A DNA stretch of 64,000 nucleotides, from the IMG/VR virus record IMGVR_UViG_2563366840_000001; one strand, given 5' to 3'. Position 1 is the stretch's first letter, and every line of letters starts with the position of its first letter. Made by a program: the position numbers and the translations under genes. The notes beneath the pieces are model-generated. The model saw only the letters and a program-made list of their open reading frames with translations, was not told the DNA's origin and made no database searches. This document shows, piece by piece, positions 3,134 to 13,884 of this stretch. Origin of the DNA: a virus. Taxonomy: Duplodnaviria; Heunggongvirae; Uroviricota; Caudoviricetes.

Positions 3134-3985
3134 ATGATAAATTATGTCTACGGCGAACAACTGTACCAGGAGTTCGTCAGCTTCAGGGATCTCTTTCTAA
3201 AAAAAGCTGTTGCACGCGCCCAACACGTTGATGCCGCCAGCAACGGTCGTCCTGTACGCCCGGTTGTCGTTCTACCGTTCAAAGAAACTGACAGCATTCA
3301 GGCTGAAATTGATAAATGGACTTTAATGGCGCGGGAACTGGAACAGTACCCAGACCTCAATATCCCAAAGACTATTTTATATCCAGTGCCTAACATCCTT
3401 CGCGGTGTGCGTAAGGTTACAACTTATCAGACAGAGGCTGTGAACAGCGTCAACATGACCGCTGGCCGCATTATTCATCTGATTGATAAGGACATTCGCA
3501 TCCAAAAAAGCGCGGGGATCAATGAGCACAGTGCGAAATACATAGAGAACCTGGAAGCAACAAAAGAGCTAATGAAGCAGTACCCGGAGGATGAAAAATT
3601 CCGTATGCGCGTACACGGCTTTAGCGAAACAATGCTGCGCGTCCATTACATTTCTAGTAGCCCTAACTACAATGATGGTAAATCAGTTAGTTACCATGTG
3701 CCGCTATGTGGTGTGTTTATCTGCGATGAAACTCTCCGTGATGGAATTATCATCAACGGTGAATTCGAGAAAGCAAAATTTAGCCTTTATGACTCCATAG
3801 AACCGATCATCTGCGACCGCTGGCCGCAAGCAAAAATATATCGCCTGGCAGATATTGAAAATGTAAAAAAACAAATTGCCATCACTCGCGAAGAGAAAAA
3901 GGTTAAGTCAGCCGCATCAGTTACGCGCAGTCGTAAAACCAAGAAGGGGCAGCCAGTAAACGACAACCCCGAAAGCGCGCAATAA
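3134..3985 (+). CDS. c1: C1 master repressor of lysogeny (283 aa)
   Basis: Translation MINYVYGEQLYQEFVSFRDLFLKKAVARAQHVDAAS... recognised as P1 C1. Confidence 0.95.
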   Translation: MINYVYGEQLYQEFVSFRDLFLKKAVARAQHVDAASNGRPVRPVVVLPFKETDSIQAEIDKWTLMARELEQYPDLNIPKTILYPVPNILRGVRKVTTYQTEAVNSVNMTAGRIIHLIDKDIRIQKSAGINEHSAKYIENLEATKELMKQYPEDEKFRMRVHGFSETMLRVHYISSSPNYNDGKSVSYHVPLCGVFICDETLRDGIIINGEFEKAKFSLYDSIEPIICDRWPQAKIYRLADIENVKKQIAITREEKKVKSAASVTRSRKTKKGQPVNDNPESAQ

Positions 3986-3989
3986 ATTA

Positions 3990-4016
3990 TGCCCGGCATC
4001 AACCGGGCATTCTTCC
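3990..4016. terminator. Hairpin TGCCCGG-CATCAA-CCGGGCA between convergent c1 and the antirepressor-like gene; possible bidirectional terminator
   Basis: Inverted repeat with T-rich flanks read from sequence. Confidence 0.4.
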
Positions 4017-4017
4017 A

Positions 4018-5130
4018 TTATTCAACCGCCACCGGTTTTAACAAGCCAGCATCGAGCAGTTTACGCGTCAACCACTGCTGGCCTTTACCCGTTAATTGAG
4101 GCGTCAACCGTATCTGGTAGCCATCTTCATCATCCAGCACCACTTCTTTCACCGTGAAATACCCCGCGTTGATGTACTGCTGGAACGGCACATTTTTACG
4201 TCCACCGGACGCTATCAGGATGCCGTTCTCCCGTAACCAGGCAAACAGCGCGTTTTGCTTAAGTCCAACAACCTTTGCAAAATTCCCAATCAGGATCCCT
4301 TTAGCTACTGATACCCGGTCGGCAAAATCGACCTTAGGAGCGGCGGCTACCAGCTGCTGATTTAGCTGGTGGGCTTTCTGTTCCAGAAGCTGCTTTTTTT
4401 CAGCCAGTTCGGCAGCCAGGCGTAGGGCTTCTGGTAATGTTTGGGGGATTGCAACCGGTTGCTGTTCTTTTTGCCGGAAGTAGCTGTCTTCCAGTTTTTC
4501 AAAGAATGCCCATGCTTCATTTGTGTCCACGATCTTAGACATGCGTGCCGCTCCGCGCTCGGCCCAGAGAATTACCTGACTTGTATATTTGCTAACCAAG
4601 TGACTAATAGTCACTAGCCTTTTAAATTCCTTTAATTTTGAACCAGTTAAGAGATAGTAATGCTTACCTTCTTCAAAGCGATCGGGGTTGCGAGACAAAT
4701 TTTTACGAATATTCGCTTCATCGGTCCCATACCCTTTAGCAAGAGTCTCAGTTGTCACTACACGCACTCCCAGCCATTCCAGAACGGGAATTTCATCAGA
4801 CTGATTCTGAACAACCACCAGCTCCGATTCCTGAACTGAAGGTGCATGAATTTTTTCTGATTTAACGTTAGTTGCTTTCATTCTGTGTGCCTCCTTGCGT
4901 GCTTCGGCTGCGACGGTTGCGTAATTCAGATGACCCTGTTCGAGCAGGTATTCGCGGATATCAGACAACAGAATGCGGTGAACAGCGTTCTTGTCCTTTC
5001 TCCGGTAAAGTTGTTTGGTGATCATGAAGTAGTTGGCTATAACGCCTGGTATATCCCTGGTACTGATACAGGCAGTGTGCTGTTCAATTGCCTCGATCAT
5101 CTCTTCACGGGTGACTAATGACGTTCTCAT
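4018..5130 (-). CDS. Antirepressor-like protein (Bro-N/ORF6N-like middle region plus KilA-C/ANT-like C-terminus), 370 aa
   Basis: Motifs ETLAKGYGTDEANIRKNLSRNPDRFEEGKHYYLL and VSVAKGILIGNFAKVVGLKQNALFAWLRENGIL resemble phage antirepressor domains; domain call is from memory. Confidence 0.55.
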   Translation of the reverse strand: MRTSLVTREEMIEAIEQHTACISTRDIPGVIANYFMITKQLYRRKDKNAVHRILLSDIREYLLEQGHLNYATVAAEARKEAHRMKATNVKSEKIHAPSVQESELVVVQNQSDEIPVLEWLGVRVVTTETLAKGYGTDEANIRKNLSRNPDRFEEGKHYYLLTGSKLKEFKRLVTISHLVSKYTSQVILWAERGAARMSKIVDTNEAWAFFEKLEDSYFRQKEQQPVAIPQTLPEALRLAAELAEKKQLLEQKAHQLNQQLVAAAPKVDFADRVSVAKGILIGNFAKVVGLKQNALFAWLRENGILIASGGRKNVPFQQYINAGYFTVKEVVLDDEDGYQIRLTPQLTGKGQQWLTRKLLDAGLLKPVAVE

Positions 5131-10082: not shown

Positions 10083-10283
10083 TTATCTGCTGCCCGGCAT
10101 TCTCTGTTTAAGCACAGCCATTTCCTGACGGCATAACACAGCAATAGCGGTCCTGGCACCAATTTGCCTACCAACCAGGTATTGCTTTACCTCGCGGCGA
10201 CTCACGCCATCAAGAAGCATCTTTAACGCTTCACGGGACAACTTGTTGTATTTACGTGCCATTAATCTACTCCGCAGAACCAT
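10083..10283 (-). CDS. pdcA: PdcA-like small basic protein (66 aa)
   Basis: Assigned by position only; overlaps doc 3' end by 17 nt. Confidence 0.35.
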
Positions 10284-10647
10284 ACAATCTACGTAACGTG
10301 TCGGCGACAGAAGATACAGATATCTCGCCAGTCGCAGCGCCTACGGTAAGGTCTGCCAGTTCAGGTGAATCAAATACCTGCACCCCGTTACGGCGTAGAA
10401 ATAGCAGCGCACTGTTTAGCGCGGTACGCTTATTGGCATCATTGAATATATGCCCTCTCGCTGTAGCCACCAGGTAGGTGGCGGAGACTTCGAAAAGGTC
10501 GGTGATCTCTTCGTAGGCAACTCTGGCCTGAACTCTCCCGATAATGGCCTCTGCCCTACCCGGATCTGACATTCCCGGCAGGCCGCCGTAGCGGCTTATA
10601 TTCGCATCATGAAGCGCAATAAGTTCTTCCGGTGATATATGCCTCAT
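10267..10647 (-). CDS. doc: Doc toxin (Fic-fold kinase, death on curing), 126 aa
   Basis: Translation [39 protein letters not shown]... recognised as P1 Doc. Confidence 0.9.
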
Positions 10648-10868
10648 TATCGGTTAACCAGTTCCTTGTTGGTGGAGTCCAGAGTGTCAAACAGGGATGC
10701 AAATTCAGCATCCAGCGCCGCTTTTTTGTAGGCTTCGAAAGTAGCCTTGCTGACAATTACTGCTGGCTCACGGCCTCTGCGGGTGATTTCAACCTCTTCC
10801 CCGGCTTCAACATTGTTGAGCACTTCAGAAAGGTTGCCGCGCGCGGTACGGAAGTTAATGGATTGCAT
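10647..10868 (-). CDS. phd: Phd antitoxin (73 aa)
   Basis: [41 protein letters not shown]...; true start is the second Met of ORF 10647..10874; stop overlaps doc start. Confidence 0.9.
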
Positions 10869-10940
10869 AAACACCTCGTGTACTCGTTATGTGTACACAA
10901 TTATAAACTTCACAGGCATAAAGCACCAGCACTTTGCAGC

Positions 10941-11330
10941 TTAAATCACCGGACAATCATCAAACTCCCCACTTCGGGCATCATTGATGACATGAGTGAT
11001 CACACCAAAAACAGCATTACTGCCCGTGCATCCATCGTCATCTACTGGTAACGCCTCTTTCTTCCCGGTGCTTAAATCCTCCAGGTGCTGGCGCGGATAC
11101 TTCCTGTATCTCTTTATGCGATATTCACCCTCCATAGCGCACACAAGCAGAGAACCATCAACCGGAGTAAGCGAGGAATCAACCACCAGCAAAGCACCCT
11201 GCAATATTCCCTCACGGTGATGGCTATCAGCTGCCCGCATGAAGTAGGTTGCTGATGGATGCCTGATTAGTTGCTGATCAAGAGAAATTCGGCTTTCAAC
11301 ATAATCCGCCGCAGGAGAAGGGAAGCCCAT
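10941..11330 (-). CDS. humD: HumD, UmuD-like SOS mutagenesis protein (129 aa)
   Basis: UmuD'-like sequence; LexA box 20 bp upstream. Confidence 0.85.
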   Translation of the reverse strand: MGFPSPAADYVESRISLDQQLIRHPSATYFMRAADSHHREGILQGALLVVDSSLTPVDGSLLVCAMEGEYRIKRYRKYPRQHLEDLSTGKKEALPVDDDGCTGSNAVFGVITHVINDARSGEFDDCPVI

Positions 11331-11349
11331 AGCGTTTCCACCTCAATAA

Positions 11350-11369
11350 TACTGTTCATTTATACAGTA
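11350..11369. promoter_or_regulatory. LexA (SOS) box TACTGTTCATTTATACAGTA
   Basis: CTGT-N8-ACAG palindrome read directly, between humD and the divergent plus-strand ORFs. Confidence 0.7.
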
Positions 11370-11681
11370 TACATTAAAGAGACACCTTTGGTGCAAACGC
11401 GTTACGTACATCAACCACCGCTGATGATTTTGTGCGCTTTGCTACTATTCATCACCAACGGATCAGCGTAACCTCGTTGCCAATCAGTTAATAAGGAATT
11501 AGCTATGCCTAATCGCATTCCTCTCGATCCTGTATTGCCCAAAAATTTTGACTGCACTCCTAACGAGAAACGCTTTAAAGCTCAGCTGGACGCCTAGTGG
11601 GACCATCCATATGGGGTTACACAACCTGACGGGAAAATTGTAGTTTATTGTCTGAATGGTGGGGCGTGGGACCGTCCATCC

Positions 11682-12089
11682 GTGCTTTGTTTGGCAGATA
11701 ACTATGATGAAGCCTGTGAACTTGCCGAAAGACAGCAGGCAAGCTGGGTAAAAACACGGTCTGAACCGACATTCATGTTTTCAAAAGAACCGCCATTTAT
11801 ACTGGCGAGGATGTCGCAGCGACCGGATCATCAACAAGAAATTGTTGCTGAATTTTCCTCAAGGGATGAGATGAATCTCTTCTCATTAAAGCAGGAAGAA
11901 AGGGATCGCGTCGAAGTGTCTCCAACTCTCGACCACAACCGGATGAACCTGGCCCAGCTCGCCTGGTACAGCAAAGAATTAGAGATGTCTATTGCCCGGC
12001 TTGAAAACGAAAAAGCCGCTATCCAAGTCCAGCACGAAGTAGTTCTGAACCGGATTAGAGAAATGCAAAACGATAACAGGGGATTTTGA
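11682..12089 (+). CDS. Hypothetical protein (135 aa; start may be further downstream)
   Basis: ORF track; divergent from humD; stop overlaps start of next ORF (TGAATGG). Confidence 0.4.
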   Translation: MLCLADNYDEACELAERQQASWVKTRSEPTFMFSKEPPFILARMSQRPDHQQEIVAEFSSRDEMNLFSLKQEERDRVEVSPTLDHNRMNLAQLAWYSKELEMSIARLENEKAAIQVQHEVVLNRIREMQNDNRGF

Positions 12090-12446
12090 ATGGCTAAAAT
12101 CGAGTACCATCGCGATCGCAGTAATTACCTGGAAATATACGATCATGAATCTCTTAACGATATCAACGATGCGTTATATGAATACTGTGAAAAAACGAGC
12201 ATCACAGATGCACCTGATGCATTTGTCGAGCTGCCGGTATATCTCCGCGACATCTATGCAATACGAACACCGCCCGTATCGGTGATTCACATTGGCTATG
12301 TCCGCCTGTCCATCGAAGAAGATGAAGATCGTTATATCGTGCGCCACTATACATTGGACAGAAAAGAACTTCCTAATGAATGGAACATGAGTAATTTCTA
12401 CAACGGTGAATATGGCTTAAAATCCGCTAATAATTTACGGTCATAA
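12090..12446 (+). CDS. Hypothetical protein (118 aa)
   Basis: ORF track; coupled to upstream ORF. Confidence 0.45.
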   Translation: MAKIEYHRDRSNYLEIYDHESLNDINDALYEYCEKTSITDAPDAFVELPVYLRDIYAIRTPPVSVIHIGYVRLSIEEDEDRYIVRHYTLDRKELPNEWNMSNFYNGEYGLKSANNLRS

Positions 12447-13308
12447 TCTATACAGGCATGTATAACAACAACGAGCCTATTAGCTGTCAACAACGTTATT
12501 TCCTCAAATAAGAAAAAGCAGAAAACAAATTGTTTAAGGTCACAAATTGTGGCCTTGATGGAGGAGGGAGGCTTATTGGCTATGGCTAAAAATCAAATTA
12601 GACACTTCATGTTGCTGTAGCTCATCAAGATCCGAGGCCACAAAACCTTTTCCGAAAAACTTCACAAGTAACTCACTAGCCGCATCATTGTCACCTATTA
12701 CACGAAAGTCATACGGCAACGTCGCAAGTTGACGATGTAATCCTGCTGAGAAAGTCGAATCTAACAGCGCCCAGAATTCCCACCGCAGGATAATACTCGC
12801 CTCTTAATACTGTATATATGTTGTTACGATATGTTTTTCTGTCTCTAAAAAAAGATGTTAATAGAATGCTAACCATTGAAGGGGATAAAAATATACAATT
12901 CCAACAAACGTTATTTTTAACAATTTTTTTCTTTGCGTTGACTTTCCCGGACACCTTGTCTGACCGAAGGTGCGCGAAAGCCACTTTTTCCTTCCTGAGT
13001 TATCCACAAAGTTATGCACTTGCAAGAGGGCCATTTTCTACATATTGTGGTGGCTAACAGATGAAATGAATGTAGATTAATTGAAGATAAGGAGAAAATT
13101 TGAGATGCAATCATGACGTTAATAGATAGGGTCTGCATTACAGACCCCACCCGCATCAAGGAATTAGCCGTTCCCTGATGTTTTTCCGAAAACATGTGCC
13201 GTAAGCTCACGTTAACGACTTTCATTCACCGAATCCAACTATATAGGGGTTGGGTTTCTACGTCAACGTGAGCAAGTGCACCTTTACATTTGACAAGGAA
13301 CCACCTGA

Positions 13309-13446
13309 ATGAACGCTTTTTTTCAGTTCCTGAGTGCATTTTTAGATGCGCCTATTATTAGCCAGATTCTGGCTATTATCCTCATCATCGTTTTGATTTT
13401 GCTTTTAAGGTCAGTAAAAAATGGAATTATGCACTGGCTTACTTAA
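13309..13446 (+). CDS. Small hydrophobic protein (45 aa), candidate membrane peptide
   Basis: MNAFFQFLSAFLDAPIISQILAIILIIVLILLLRSVKNGIMHWLT; AAGGA 9 nt upstream of ATG; too short for the ORF track. Confidence 0.3.
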   Translation: MNAFFQFLSAFLDAPIISQILAIILIIVLILLLRSVKNGIMHWLT

Positions 13447-13521
13447 TGTTTCAGTGAAACATTAAAATCTCCTTGATGTGGAAACAATCATTTTCTGTAT
13501 GTGCTGGTGGGCACCTGTAGT

Positions 13522-13884
13522 TCAGCTTTCGTTGGCATTTAACTTCGTCTTTGCTTTCTCCACCAGCAACTTCCAGATGCCTATTTCATTAGCAGCCGCC
13601 TTGATGGCGGCATAAAAAGCATCTTGCTGATCGTAACGCTGGATCTGTTTTTTCAGTTTTGCCTCCACCAATTTAATTTCATTACGTGCTTTCTGAAGCC
13701 GCATCACCGCCCGGTTACGTCTGTTCTTGTATAGCGTGTTAATCTCTGACAATTGCTTTAATTTACCAGCCTGACTGCGGATTATCGCCTCCCTGGCTTC
13801 TGCCGTGCGTCTCATCTTATCTCTTAAGAGTTCACCGTTTTCGATAATTCTTTCAAGGTGTTTGATGTGATCTGCAACTCTCAT
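13522..13884 (-). CDS. Hypothetical coiled-coil protein (120 aa)
   Basis: ORF track; last gene of a minus-strand gene string. Confidence 0.5.
   Translation of the reverse strand: MRVADHIKHLERIIENGELLRDKMRRTAEAREAIIRSQAGKLKQLSEINTLYKNRRNRAVMRLQKARNEIKLVEAKLKKQIQRYDQQDAFYAAIKAAANEIGIWKLLVEKAKTKLNANES

Follow-up and report, generated by a model that had tools for sequence, protein, structure and literature searches.

A LexA box with perfect arms lies between humD and two divergent genes, lxr and upf93.6, in a P1/P7-type phage-plasmid. In our reading, the box is probably the operator of humD, and lxr-upf93.6 is a separate piece of cargo that is probably not under direct LexA control; lxr itself is interrupted by an amber codon here. 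The DNA analyzed is a viral stretch of 64,000 nt, which we call the window and whose positions we use throughout. The region around the box is 97-99% identical to P1, P7, and SJ46, and the gene order lpa, pdcB, pdcA, doc, phd, humD, box, lxr is common to all four. The features that the analysis concerns are:

10941-11330, minus strand: humD, encoding a UmuD'-like protein of 129 aa (ORF list, Pfam Peptidase_S24, PHROG 811)
11350-11369, no strand assigned: LexA (SOS) box TACTGTTCATTTATACAGTA, the predicted humD operator (perfect arms, top PWM score, P1/P7 annotation, arm constraint)
11366-11396, minus strand: candidate humD promoter, predicted (our own hexamer scan, recurrence in relatives)
11440-11448, plus strand: candidate lxr promoter, predicted, with the extended -10 element TGcTACTAT (hexamer scan, invariance)
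11505-12089, plus strand: lxr homologue of the P7 upf94.2 type, 194 codons, a pseudogene in the window (translation, alignment to P1, P7, and SJ46)
11574-11576, plus strand: TCT to TTT, turning Ser24 into Phe; it precedes the amber codon and is absent from all compared records
11595-11597, plus strand: in-frame amber codon TAG replacing Trp31 (TGG) (alignment)
11682-12089, plus strand: "135-aa ORF", a remnant ORF with a GTG start, downstream of the amber codon
12090-12446, plus strand: upf93.6 homologue, 118 aa, intact (ORF list, P7 annotation Upf93.6, PHROG 5797)

The box as the probable LexA operator of humD

Judged by its sequence, the palindrome has all the properties of an E. coli-type LexA operator. 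A pattern search showed that TACTGTTCATTTATACAGTA is the sole perfect TACTGT-N8-ACAGTA within the 64-kb window. It matches the consensus TACTGTATATATATACAGTA at 17 of 20 positions, including all 12 in the arms, and seven of its eight spacer bases are A or T. When scored with a PWM from 22 E. coli LexA sites, the box reaches 23.9 bits, which is the best match in the window and exceeds 18 of the 22 sites in the set. The preliminary description had noted a near-perfect SOS box just upstream of humD and had proposed motif scoring; the score supports a LexA-like site, and the gap to the humD start codon (complement of 11328-11330) measures 19 nt. Among 48 related loci comprising 19 distinct intergenic haplotypes, the core CTGT/ACAG is variable at none of its eight positions and the spacer at five of eight. 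RCS47, D6, and CMS-2020a likewise preserve the arms. An Rfam scan of 10800-13600 returned a sole match, a chance miRNA match on the palindrome.

The site is not new. It has been annotated for about two decades in the P1 GenBank record (NC_005856 / AF234172) as a "LexA binding site in the regulatory region of lxr and humD", with lxr described there as "LexA regulated function". The P7 record (AF503408) names the facing genes upf94.2 and upf93.6 and annotates the identical box as a LexA protein_bind feature of humD only.

HumD of the window matches Pfam PF00717 (Peptidase_S24; E = 5.7e-9) and PHROG 811 "UmuD-like" (E = 7e-55) and shares 99-100% identity with the HumD proteins of P1-type loci. 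It has the S24 domain and the size of UmuD' without the N-terminal cleavage segment, phd-doc adjoins it, and the gene is intact at every surveyed locus at which it could be read from end to end. A study with humD primers measured lytic induction, not SOS induction (PMC4713147).

Our scan places a candidate humD promoter directly over the box, with a -35 hexamer TTGCAC (complement of 11391-11396), a 19-nt spacer, and a -10 hexamer TATACT (complement of 11366-11371), such that the LexA box covers part of the predicted -10 and start-site region. At the same place, CMS-2020a has TTGCAC-19-TATACT and the phages RCS47, D6, and 813R1 have TTCACA-18-TATACT. Hexamers resembling -35 and -10 elements recur at one and the same offset in three upstream sequences that are unrelated to each other. 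Three points count against this candidate: the -10 in P1 itself is TGTACT, the -35 of the window requires a 19-nt spacer, and the PhumD predicted by the P1 annotators lies far upstream, inside lxr.

In the E. coli umuDC operator, a CTGT-N8-ACAG box lies over the promoter of a UmuD-family gene, and LexA cleavage relieves repression. The window resembles it in having a LexA-like box over the predicted promoter of the UmuD-family gene humD, but differs in two respects: the humD product has only the size of UmuD' (129 aa) and is thus pre-processed, and no umuC adjoins the gene. We propose that host LexA would bind the 20-bp palindrome where the probable humD promoter has its -10 and start site. 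Owing to this overlap, humD would be kept off until RecA-stimulated LexA cleavage after DNA damage, an arrangement of the umuDC type.

Does the box also control lxr and upf93.6?

For the rightward genes, a standard promoter scan, which admits only 16-18 nt spacers and requires at least 4/6 matches per hexamer, for that reason gave no intergenic candidate; we therefore used our own scan. In it, TGcTACTAT (11440-11448) ties for the best plus-strand score in 11300-11505, and no other top candidate has the canonical A2/T6 of the -10 hexamer. None of its nine positions varies over the 19 haplotypes. The predicted start site would lie near 11455, placing the LexA box at about -105 to -86. If lxr and upf93.6 are transcribed from this extended -10 promoter of their own, which we consider most likely and which lies about 70 bp past the box, then on that reading they would probably be without direct LexA control.

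One LexA box can act on divergent promoters, as in the E. coli uvrA-ssb intergenic region. It is conceivable, if doubtful, that the box is likewise a bidirectional operator that represses humD leftwards and lxr-upf93.6 rightwards, so that DNA damage would induce both. The P1 record assigns the site to both genes, whereas the P7 record gives it to humD alone. The box sits in the sole intergenic region between the divergent genes, at a near-fixed distance from the lxr ATG (134-136 nt in almost all P1/P7-type loci, 124 nt in one); constant spacing would also be expected of a shared regulatory region, though these loci are 90-99% identical anyway. Weak plus-strand hexamer pairs such as TTTCCA-17-ATTTAT do overlap the box, but their -10 hexamers are without the canonical A2/T6, and they do not stand out from shuffled sequence: 29% of shuffles equal the best plus-strand promoter score near the box. 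The best canonical plus-strand promoter candidate lies 71 bp downstream of the box.

The distribution of the box among relatives also argues against bidirectional control. RCS47, D6, and 813R1 have no lxr; they carry hot and then humD in tandem with the box in between at the same position, and their homology to the window stops at about 11378, just past the box. CMS-2020a also has humD and the box at the same position, and its upstream DNA departs from that of the window just past the box. Conversely, six diverged loci (L030 and L138-L142, with Lxr 63-69% identical) have no humD, and the best LexA score within 400 nt upstream is at most 7.3; upf93.6 is present at +584 to +588 in four of the six. 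No LexA-like site was found at 57 species-level genome loci or at the diverged viral loci, with the qualification that the E. coli motif is inapplicable to alpha-proteobacteria. Thus the box stays with humD where lxr is absent, and is absent where lxr-upf93.6 occurs without humD.

The preliminary description had suggested that the two plus-strand ORFs may be SOS-induced, the same guess that the P1 annotators had made in naming lxr. These comparisons speak against it and for the reading that the box is the humD operator, beside which lxr and upf93.6 would have been inserted as a separate, movable cargo module. Among the papers covered by our literature search, none reports a function of lxr, its expression profile, or LexA binding.

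lxr is a pseudogene and upf93.6 is intact

The lxr frame opens at an ATG at 11505, preceded by a Shine-Dalgarno sequence AAGGA at 11493-11497, and ends with TGA at 12087-12089. It is 97-99% identical to its orthologues across all 194 codons and keeps the position divergent from humD. Codon 31, however, is TAG. Trp31 is kept as TGG in P1, P7, SJ46, and pJIE250_3; of the two tryptophans in the invariant QLDAWWDHP motif, it is the first. The reading frame is therefore not intact, and lxr is a pseudogene in this window.

The 135-aa ORF that had been described as a gene is instead the tail of this 194-codon frame, cut by the stop at codon 31. It has no evident Shine-Dalgarno sequence, and its product would lack residues 1-59 of the conserved domain. 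Of the two coupled plus-strand ORFs in the preliminary description, the 118-aa ORF thus stands as a real and intact gene and the 135-aa ORF does not. With the amber codon inside the most conserved motif, only upf93.6 would still be makeable from the pair.

The stop is not confined to the window. The lxr segment matches eight complete E. coli plasmids, with one mismatch in 106 nt and no gene annotated there; the TAG allele was confirmed in pEC21Z048-103K and pMRE162, the two of the eight that we read, and is also present on three IMG/VR contigs. The exact sequence of the 135-aa ORF occurs on 24 contigs, and in the TAG-allele plasmids PGAP names its equivalent "hypothetical protein" (WP_001354543.1). 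Premature lxr stops at codons 31, 72, 112, and 137 affect about 12-13 of about 42 loci. We observe that lxr has been knocked out repeatedly and independently in natural P1-like plasmids, at these four codons, and the neighboring humD never. A CRISPRi screen of P1 found lxr to be non-essential (PMC10695390).

The ATG of upf93.6 abuts the lxr TGA and is preceded by a Shine-Dalgarno sequence AGGGGA at 12078-12083. The protein is 99-100% identical to the copies in IMG/VR P1-type loci and matches PHROG 5797, of unknown function; it has only 17 database relatives, nearly all of the named ones enterobacterial. Its AlphaFold2 model, built from seven sequences, has a pLDDT of 39.6 and was unusable for fold search. 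Sequence-profile searches of the PDB with Lxr and Upf93.6 found nothing, and when both proteins were searched against Pfam, NCBIfam, PHROGs, and PADLOC, nothing emerged beyond PHROGs labeled "unknown function" and noise below threshold (PKK, DUF7491, DUF7588), in agreement with the earlier statement that the genes facing humD are of unknown function.

The two genes had also been put forward as toxin-antitoxin candidates. We regard it as very unlikely that lxr and upf93.6 work together as a toxin-antitoxin or anti-defence module of two components, both of them required. The genes are small and abutting (TGA then ATG) in a variable, cargo-rich region beside phd-doc, diverged P1-like elements retain the pair at 57-69% identity, and Lxr N-domain homologues occur among conjugative-element accessory genes near ArdC, TraG, WGR, and DUF736, in regions known to be rich in anti-defence genes (PMC11541004). 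The partners are nevertheless found apart: P1 has lxr without upf93.6, Salmonella plasmids have upf93.6 without lxr, and most members of the Lxr family stand alone. Several lineages carry a truncated lxr beside a still intact upf93.6, so upf93.6 does not encode an Lxr-dependent toxin. PADLOC assigned zero families to the two proteins of the window, and neither matched a toxin or antitoxin family. The separate occurrence, the truncation of lxr with upf93.6 intact, and the lack of family matches together make a toxin-antitoxin pair unlikely. For an anti-defence role of lxr or upf93.6, the genomic context offers a vague hint.

Finally, it is extremely improbable that the palindrome has no LexA function and is just an inverted repeat of chance or structural origin: the pattern is not enriched in the window when two mismatches are allowed (two matches found, 0.96 expected), but the zero-mismatch match is unique, its score is in the upper range of known sites, its arms are fixed and its spacer free over the 19 haplotypes, even in phages with other surrounding DNA, and it sits on the predicted promoter of a gene whose class, the UmuD homologues, is canonical for SOS.

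Relation to P1, P7, and E. coli plasmids

P1 has the identical 20-bp box at the same offset from humD, the same flanking genes, and an Lxr protein about 90% identical over the first ~175 residues. The window departs from P1 at about 12039 and has a P7-type Lxr C-terminus (194 aa versus 190 in P1), and P1 has hot on the opposite strand where the window has upf93.6; the amber codon 31 is a further difference from P1. P7, SJ46, and pJIE250_3 are closer, aligning over the whole 1.1-1.7 kb region at 98.7-99.7% with the same plus-strand genes and box. Their first plus-strand gene is intact (194 aa), whereas the window has the Trp31 stop and S24F. The plasmids pEC21Z048-103K and pMRE162 share the TGG to TAG change at codon 31 but carry the box variant TACTGTTTATCTATACAGCA and several other intergenic differences. 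Given the same TAG allele with a different box and intergenic sequence, the window looks recombinant between lineages.

The Lxr N-domain

The N-terminal domain of Lxr, of about 125 aa, is strongly conserved and occurs on plasmids, conjugative elements, and phage-plasmids of Proteobacteria, in at least 462 clusters at 50% identity with E ≤ 0.001. Its motifs are IPLDPxLPxxFDxTPNExRSKxQLDxWWDxP, CLNGGAWDR, and QRPD. The domain has no match in Pfam, NCBIfam, or PADLOC, and we found no NCBIfam model from which the PGAP name "DNA-binding protein" could originate; an AP2 or integrase-arm-type DNA-binding fold of the beta-beta-beta-alpha unit is a candidate explanation of that name. The AlphaFold2 model of Lxr (pLDDT 87) consists of two beta-beta-beta-alpha units and a helix at 149-191, and the predicted fold has no clear match in PDB or BFVD.

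P1-like versions of Lxr carry an extra C-terminal coiled coil. Stand-alone Lxr N-domain proteins (~133 aa), found on plasmids, ICEs, and phage-plasmids, are 50-65% identical to Lxr within residues 1-125 and carry QLDxWWDxP, CLNGG.WDR, and QRPD as common invariant motifs, but lack the C-terminal coiled coil, the LexA box, humD, and upf93.6. Recurrent neighbors of the domain include the TraG/VirD4 coupling protein, WGR, DUF736, resolvase, and repABC or RepA; its surroundings are regions for maintenance and establishment, with rep/par and toxin-antitoxin genes nearby. Some stand-alone genes are translationally coupled to a serine resolvase or adjoin repABC or TraG; one Pseudomonas/Xanthomonas plasmid operon combines genes of 67 and 135 aa with a resolvase. 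We considered whether coupling to a resolvase characterizes the family as a whole and rejected this, as such coupling is confined to two groups.

As a working guess, Lxr may be a dispensable accessory factor for establishment or maintenance that binds DNA or a conserved host protein. At a low level of confidence, we suggest that the Lxr N-domain may represent a large undescribed family whose members could target a highly conserved partner, either DNA or a host component, and be useful on entry into a new host and costly or counter-selected during long carriage. An establishment or anti-defence factor that is sensed by some hosts would be one example.

Three consequences follow for annotation. 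The name lxr rests on adjacency alone, and the comparative evidence favors humD as the owner of the operator, so annotation pipelines and reviews that repeat "LexA-regulated function" may be passing on a conjecture. In one E. coli plasmid lineage, as in the window, lxr is an amber pseudogene, and annotations list its 135-aa remnant as a hypothetical protein. The Lxr N-domain, which is widespread and conserved and has no Pfam or NCBIfam model, merits definition as a family.

A LexA-like box upstream of humD

The intergenic region between humD and the plus-strand gene lxr contains the palindrome TACTGTTCATTTATACAGTA at 11350-11369, confirming the preliminary description of an SOS box about 20 bp upstream of humD. 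The gap to the humD start codon is 19 nt, 17 of 20 positions match the E. coli consensus, and this is the sole perfect TACTGT-N8-ACAGTA within the 64 kb. Motif scoring agreed: with an approximate position weight matrix from 22 E. coli LexA sites, the box scores 23.9 bits, exceeding 18 of the 22 E. coli sites and every other site in the window. The second-best site, AACTGTATGGATTTACAGGT (2351-2370; 19.7 bits, near the median of the known E. coli sites), is located in the coi/imcA/imcB/cra-cre region. A P1 LexA site in the coi/imcB/cra region was described earlier (PMC4713147), and the 2351-2370 site is probably this known site of the coi promoter, which couples SOS to lytic induction.

Positions 10900-12600 share 97-99% identity with P1, P7, the Salmonella phage SJ46 and numerous P1-like plasmids of E. 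coli and Salmonella, and the gene order is that of the P1 record (lpa, pdcB, pdcA, doc, phd, humD, LexA site, lxr).

Features of the region (doc, phd and humD from the window ORF list)
10267-10647, minus: doc
about 10647-10868, minus: phd
10941-11330, minus: humD; start codon 11328-11330 (complement)
11366-11371 (complement), minus: candidate humD -10, TATACT, overlapping the box; TTGCAC upstream at 19 nt
11440-11448, plus: candidate lxr promoter, extended -10 TGcTACTAT; sole canonical plus-strand candidate
11505-12089, plus: lxr frame; ATG 11505, good Shine-Dalgarno, 194 codons
11595-11597, plus: in-frame TAG at codon 31; TGG (Trp31) in P1, P7, SJ46 and plasmid pJIE250_3
11682-12089, plus: 135-aa ORF from GTG 11682, a mechanical remnant of the lxr frame
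12090-12446, plus: upf93.6, 118 aa; ATG abuts the upstream TGA; Shine-Dalgarno AGGGGA at 12078-12083

The box is real but already annotated. The P1 RefSeq record labels the identical 20-mer "LexA binding site in the regulatory region of lxr and humD" and calls the facing gene lxr, "LexA regulated function," and the P7 record labels its LexA site "regulation of humD expression" and lists the two plus-strand genes as upf94.2 (194 aa; the P7 name of lxr) and upf93.6 (118 aa). Later comparative papers merely name lxr as part of a variable region (PMC9603915, PMC6906374), and a P1 CRISPRi screen scored both lxr and humD as non-essential (PMC10695390). Among the papers searched, we found no expression, binding or functional data on lxr. 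Past upf93.6, about 1 kb of AT-rich DNA (12450-13500; GC 0.38-0.41) contains nothing but short ORFs, which occur on both strands; comparative papers name this variable region RD-5 or region 8, and its counterpart has no annotated gene in SJ46 and IS903 in P7.

We gathered 122 related loci and scored them for the box, humD and lxr. All P1/P7-type loci (Lxr at least 80% identical) that reach far enough upstream have the divergent humD at -561 and a box, which scores 19.6-27.1 bits; the distance from box to lxr ATG is 134-136 nt in all but one of them (124 nt). Across 19 distinct intergenic haplotypes, variation affects none of the 8 positions of the CTGT/ACAG core, 1 of the 12 positions of the two 6-nt arms and 5 of the 8 spacer positions, as would be the case if the arms were constrained by LexA contacts.

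Assignment of the operator

The preliminary description further proposed that the two plus-strand genes may be SOS-induced, an idea for which the comparison gave no support. The related phages RCS47, D6 and 813R1 lack lxr; in them humD follows hot in tandem, and the box TACTGTTTATTCATACAGTA sits between these two genes. Their homology to the window ends at about 11378, just past the box. In another related phage, CMS-2020a, the box TACTGTTCATTTACACAGTA is followed by DNA unlike that of the window. Six diverged P1-like elements (L030 and L138-L142; Lxr 63-69% identity) lack humD, and no LexA score in the 400 nt upstream of their lxr exceeds 7.3; an upf93.6 homolog (57%) is found at the unchanged offset in four of the six. 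Because the box is kept without lxr, and lxr without the box or humD, the box travels with humD, and by this comparison the lxr-upf93.6 pair is a module independent of it.

At the same offset as the candidate humD -10, but with unrelated upstream DNA, we found TTCACA-18-TATACT in the RCS47-type phages and TTGCAC-19-TATACT in CMS-2020a. With LexA on the box, the predicted humD -10 and start site would be covered, a umuDC-like layout. Plus-strand promoter candidates overlapping the box did not stand out from shuffles, 29% of which reached an equal score. The extended -10 at 11440-11448 is unchanged in 19/19 haplotypes, and the box would lie at about -86 to -105 from its predicted start, too distant for simple occlusion. 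From these predicted promoters, we assign the candidate operator, with moderate confidence, to humD. In the P1 GenBank record, a sigma-70 promoter "PhumD" is predicted within the lxr coding region, some 480 bp upstream of humD (87080-87106; 3409-3435 of locus L001). The lxr-less phages, with -35/-10-like hexamers beside the box, argue for a humD promoter that is box-proximal and not inside lxr.

A bidirectional operator, with one box serving humD and lxr-upf93.6, would agree with the P1 record, which assigns the site to the regulatory region of both genes. We consider this possible but less likely, as the box stays with humD where lxr is absent and the plus-strand overlap is no better than shuffles. 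LexA control of lxr/upf93.6 is unsupported by these comparisons, and of the original observation, the suggestion that SOS governs the plus-strand genes holds up least well.

Disruption of lxr

The 118-aa plus-strand ORF is as first described, but the 135-aa ORF turned out to be what remains of a 194-codon lxr broken by TAG. Eight complete E. coli plasmids each align to a 106-nt segment surrounding codon 31 with just one mismatch, and none of them has a gene annotation in it; in the two inspected (pEC21Z048-103K and pMRE162), the TAG is present and PGAP labels the 135-aa remnant a hypothetical protein. The TAG allele is also on three IMG/VR contigs, and the exact remnant sequence of the window is on 24 contigs. 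S24F in the window lxr was not seen in the compared records. In the window, the amber allele known from the pMRE162/pEC21Z048 lineage occurs together with the pJIE250_3 intergenic haplotype and P104S (11320-11510 compared with loci L013/L014), which suggests that P1-like lineages recombined here over a span of about 250 bp.

Further premature stops in P1-type loci occur at codons 72, 112 and 137. Altogether, about 12-13 of roughly 42 scorable P1-type loci (L104, L106, L108, L110, L111, L118-L125 and L135; lxr at ~4001-4582 of each) have a prematurely ended lxr, through at least four separate mutations, whereas humD is intact wherever its full length is readable. Thus lxr is dispensable and decays readily, and the repeated stops beside an intact humD point to relaxed or negative selection on lxr specifically. 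Judging by its early stop, Lxr is non-functional in the window, leaving only upf93.6 as potentially expressed, at a level that polarity from this stop could reduce.

The Lxr family and its genomic contexts

Homology search and fold prediction, suggested for both proteins, gave a family and a usable model for Lxr but neither for Upf93.6. Pfam, NCBIfam and PADLOC yielded nothing for Lxr, and its PHROG matches are only to families of unknown function (best: 6164); NCBI records call Lxr "DNA-binding protein," a name not traceable to any model. Residues 1-125 are strongly conserved, with 50-65% identity to Klebsiella, Pseudomonas, Xanthomonas, Burkholderia, Bradyrhizobium and Sphingobium proteins. 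Invariant positions include W31, on which the amber codon of the window falls, W32, D33, C49, N51, G52, G53, D56, R57, R106, P107 and D108. An exhaustive profile search with Lxr retrieved 462 clusters (50% identity) at E <= 0.001. Many distant members of this Lxr-N family (P0140, P0145, P0147, P0151, P0168, P0191) have a conserved N-terminal extension of ~60 aa with the motif PTATLVAKxKRxAKxxAR...SHSEALExxARxxGYxSWHEL, which weakly resembles the initial ~50 positions of Pfam Glyoxalase_8; in one protein, P0151, it also contains a PaaA2 "stability determinant" motif above the Pfam threshold. The AlphaFold2 model of Lxr (37 sequences; pLDDT 87) has two beta-beta-beta-alpha units, followed in P1-like Lxr by a long helix (149-191). 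Weak matches to AP2/ERF, integrase arm-binding domains and HicB N-domains recur.

Lxr-N genes are found in maintenance and establishment regions of mobile elements.

Genomic contexts of Lxr-N
Pseudomonas/Xanthomonas plasmids (L008-L011, 6001-7040): overlaps serine resolvase start by 4 nt; RepA, Fic/VbhA and ArdC adjoining
Burkholderia gladioli (L156, 3291-4342): again overlaps serine resolvase start by 4 nt
Bradyrhizobium plasmid: beside repABC and trb genes
Klebsiella phage-plasmid: near gp32, RecA, exonuclease and Pol III alpha genes
Salmonella plasmid: near Y-family polymerase and Tus-like gene
Alpha-proteobacterial elements: near TraG/VirD4 (10/45 non-redundant groups), WGR and DUF736

In the Pseudomonas/Xanthomonas plasmids, a 66-67-aa gene lies ahead of the stand-alone Lxr-N homolog. 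The overlap with the resolvase gene hints that Lxr-N may be connected with site-specific recombination or multimer resolution.

For Upf93.6 there are only 17 relatives, the named ones nearly all enterobacterial, with no match to a family of assigned function (Pfam, NCBIfam, PHROG, PADLOC), no PDB match and an unusable model (pLDDT 39.6). Salmonella plasmids (L026-L029, 2754-4345) carry upf93.6 homologs (54% identity) without Lxr, downstream of unrelated 81-aa and 320-aa genes and beside ccdAB; the 320-aa protein is uncharacterized. That lxr-upf93.6 forms an obligate toxin-antitoxin or anti-defence pair is very improbable: the genes failed a co-occurrence test, upf93.6 occurring without Lxr, and neither has family support. 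Least credible is a palindrome by chance, which the fixed arms and variable spacer contradict.

We propose that humD would be repressed by LexA via the box and that DNA damage would lift this repression, the derepressed gene supplying pre-processed UmuD' to host UmuC, a HumD function reportedly established by McLenigan et al. in 1999. The lxr-upf93.6 pair would be adjoining cargo with its own predicted constitutive, weak extended -10 promoter. Lxr may be an accessory factor, itself dispensable, that helps mobile elements to become established or to be maintained; it probably dimerizes via its coiled coil, with DNA or a conserved host protein as its binding partner. Our confidence is high in the gene and site identities, moderate in the regulatory assignment (humD via LexA; lxr-upf93.6 separate) and low in the protein function of Lxr/Upf93.6. 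The mildly novel thread is a widespread, uncharacterized Lxr N-domain family that is recurrently lost in P1-like plasmids.
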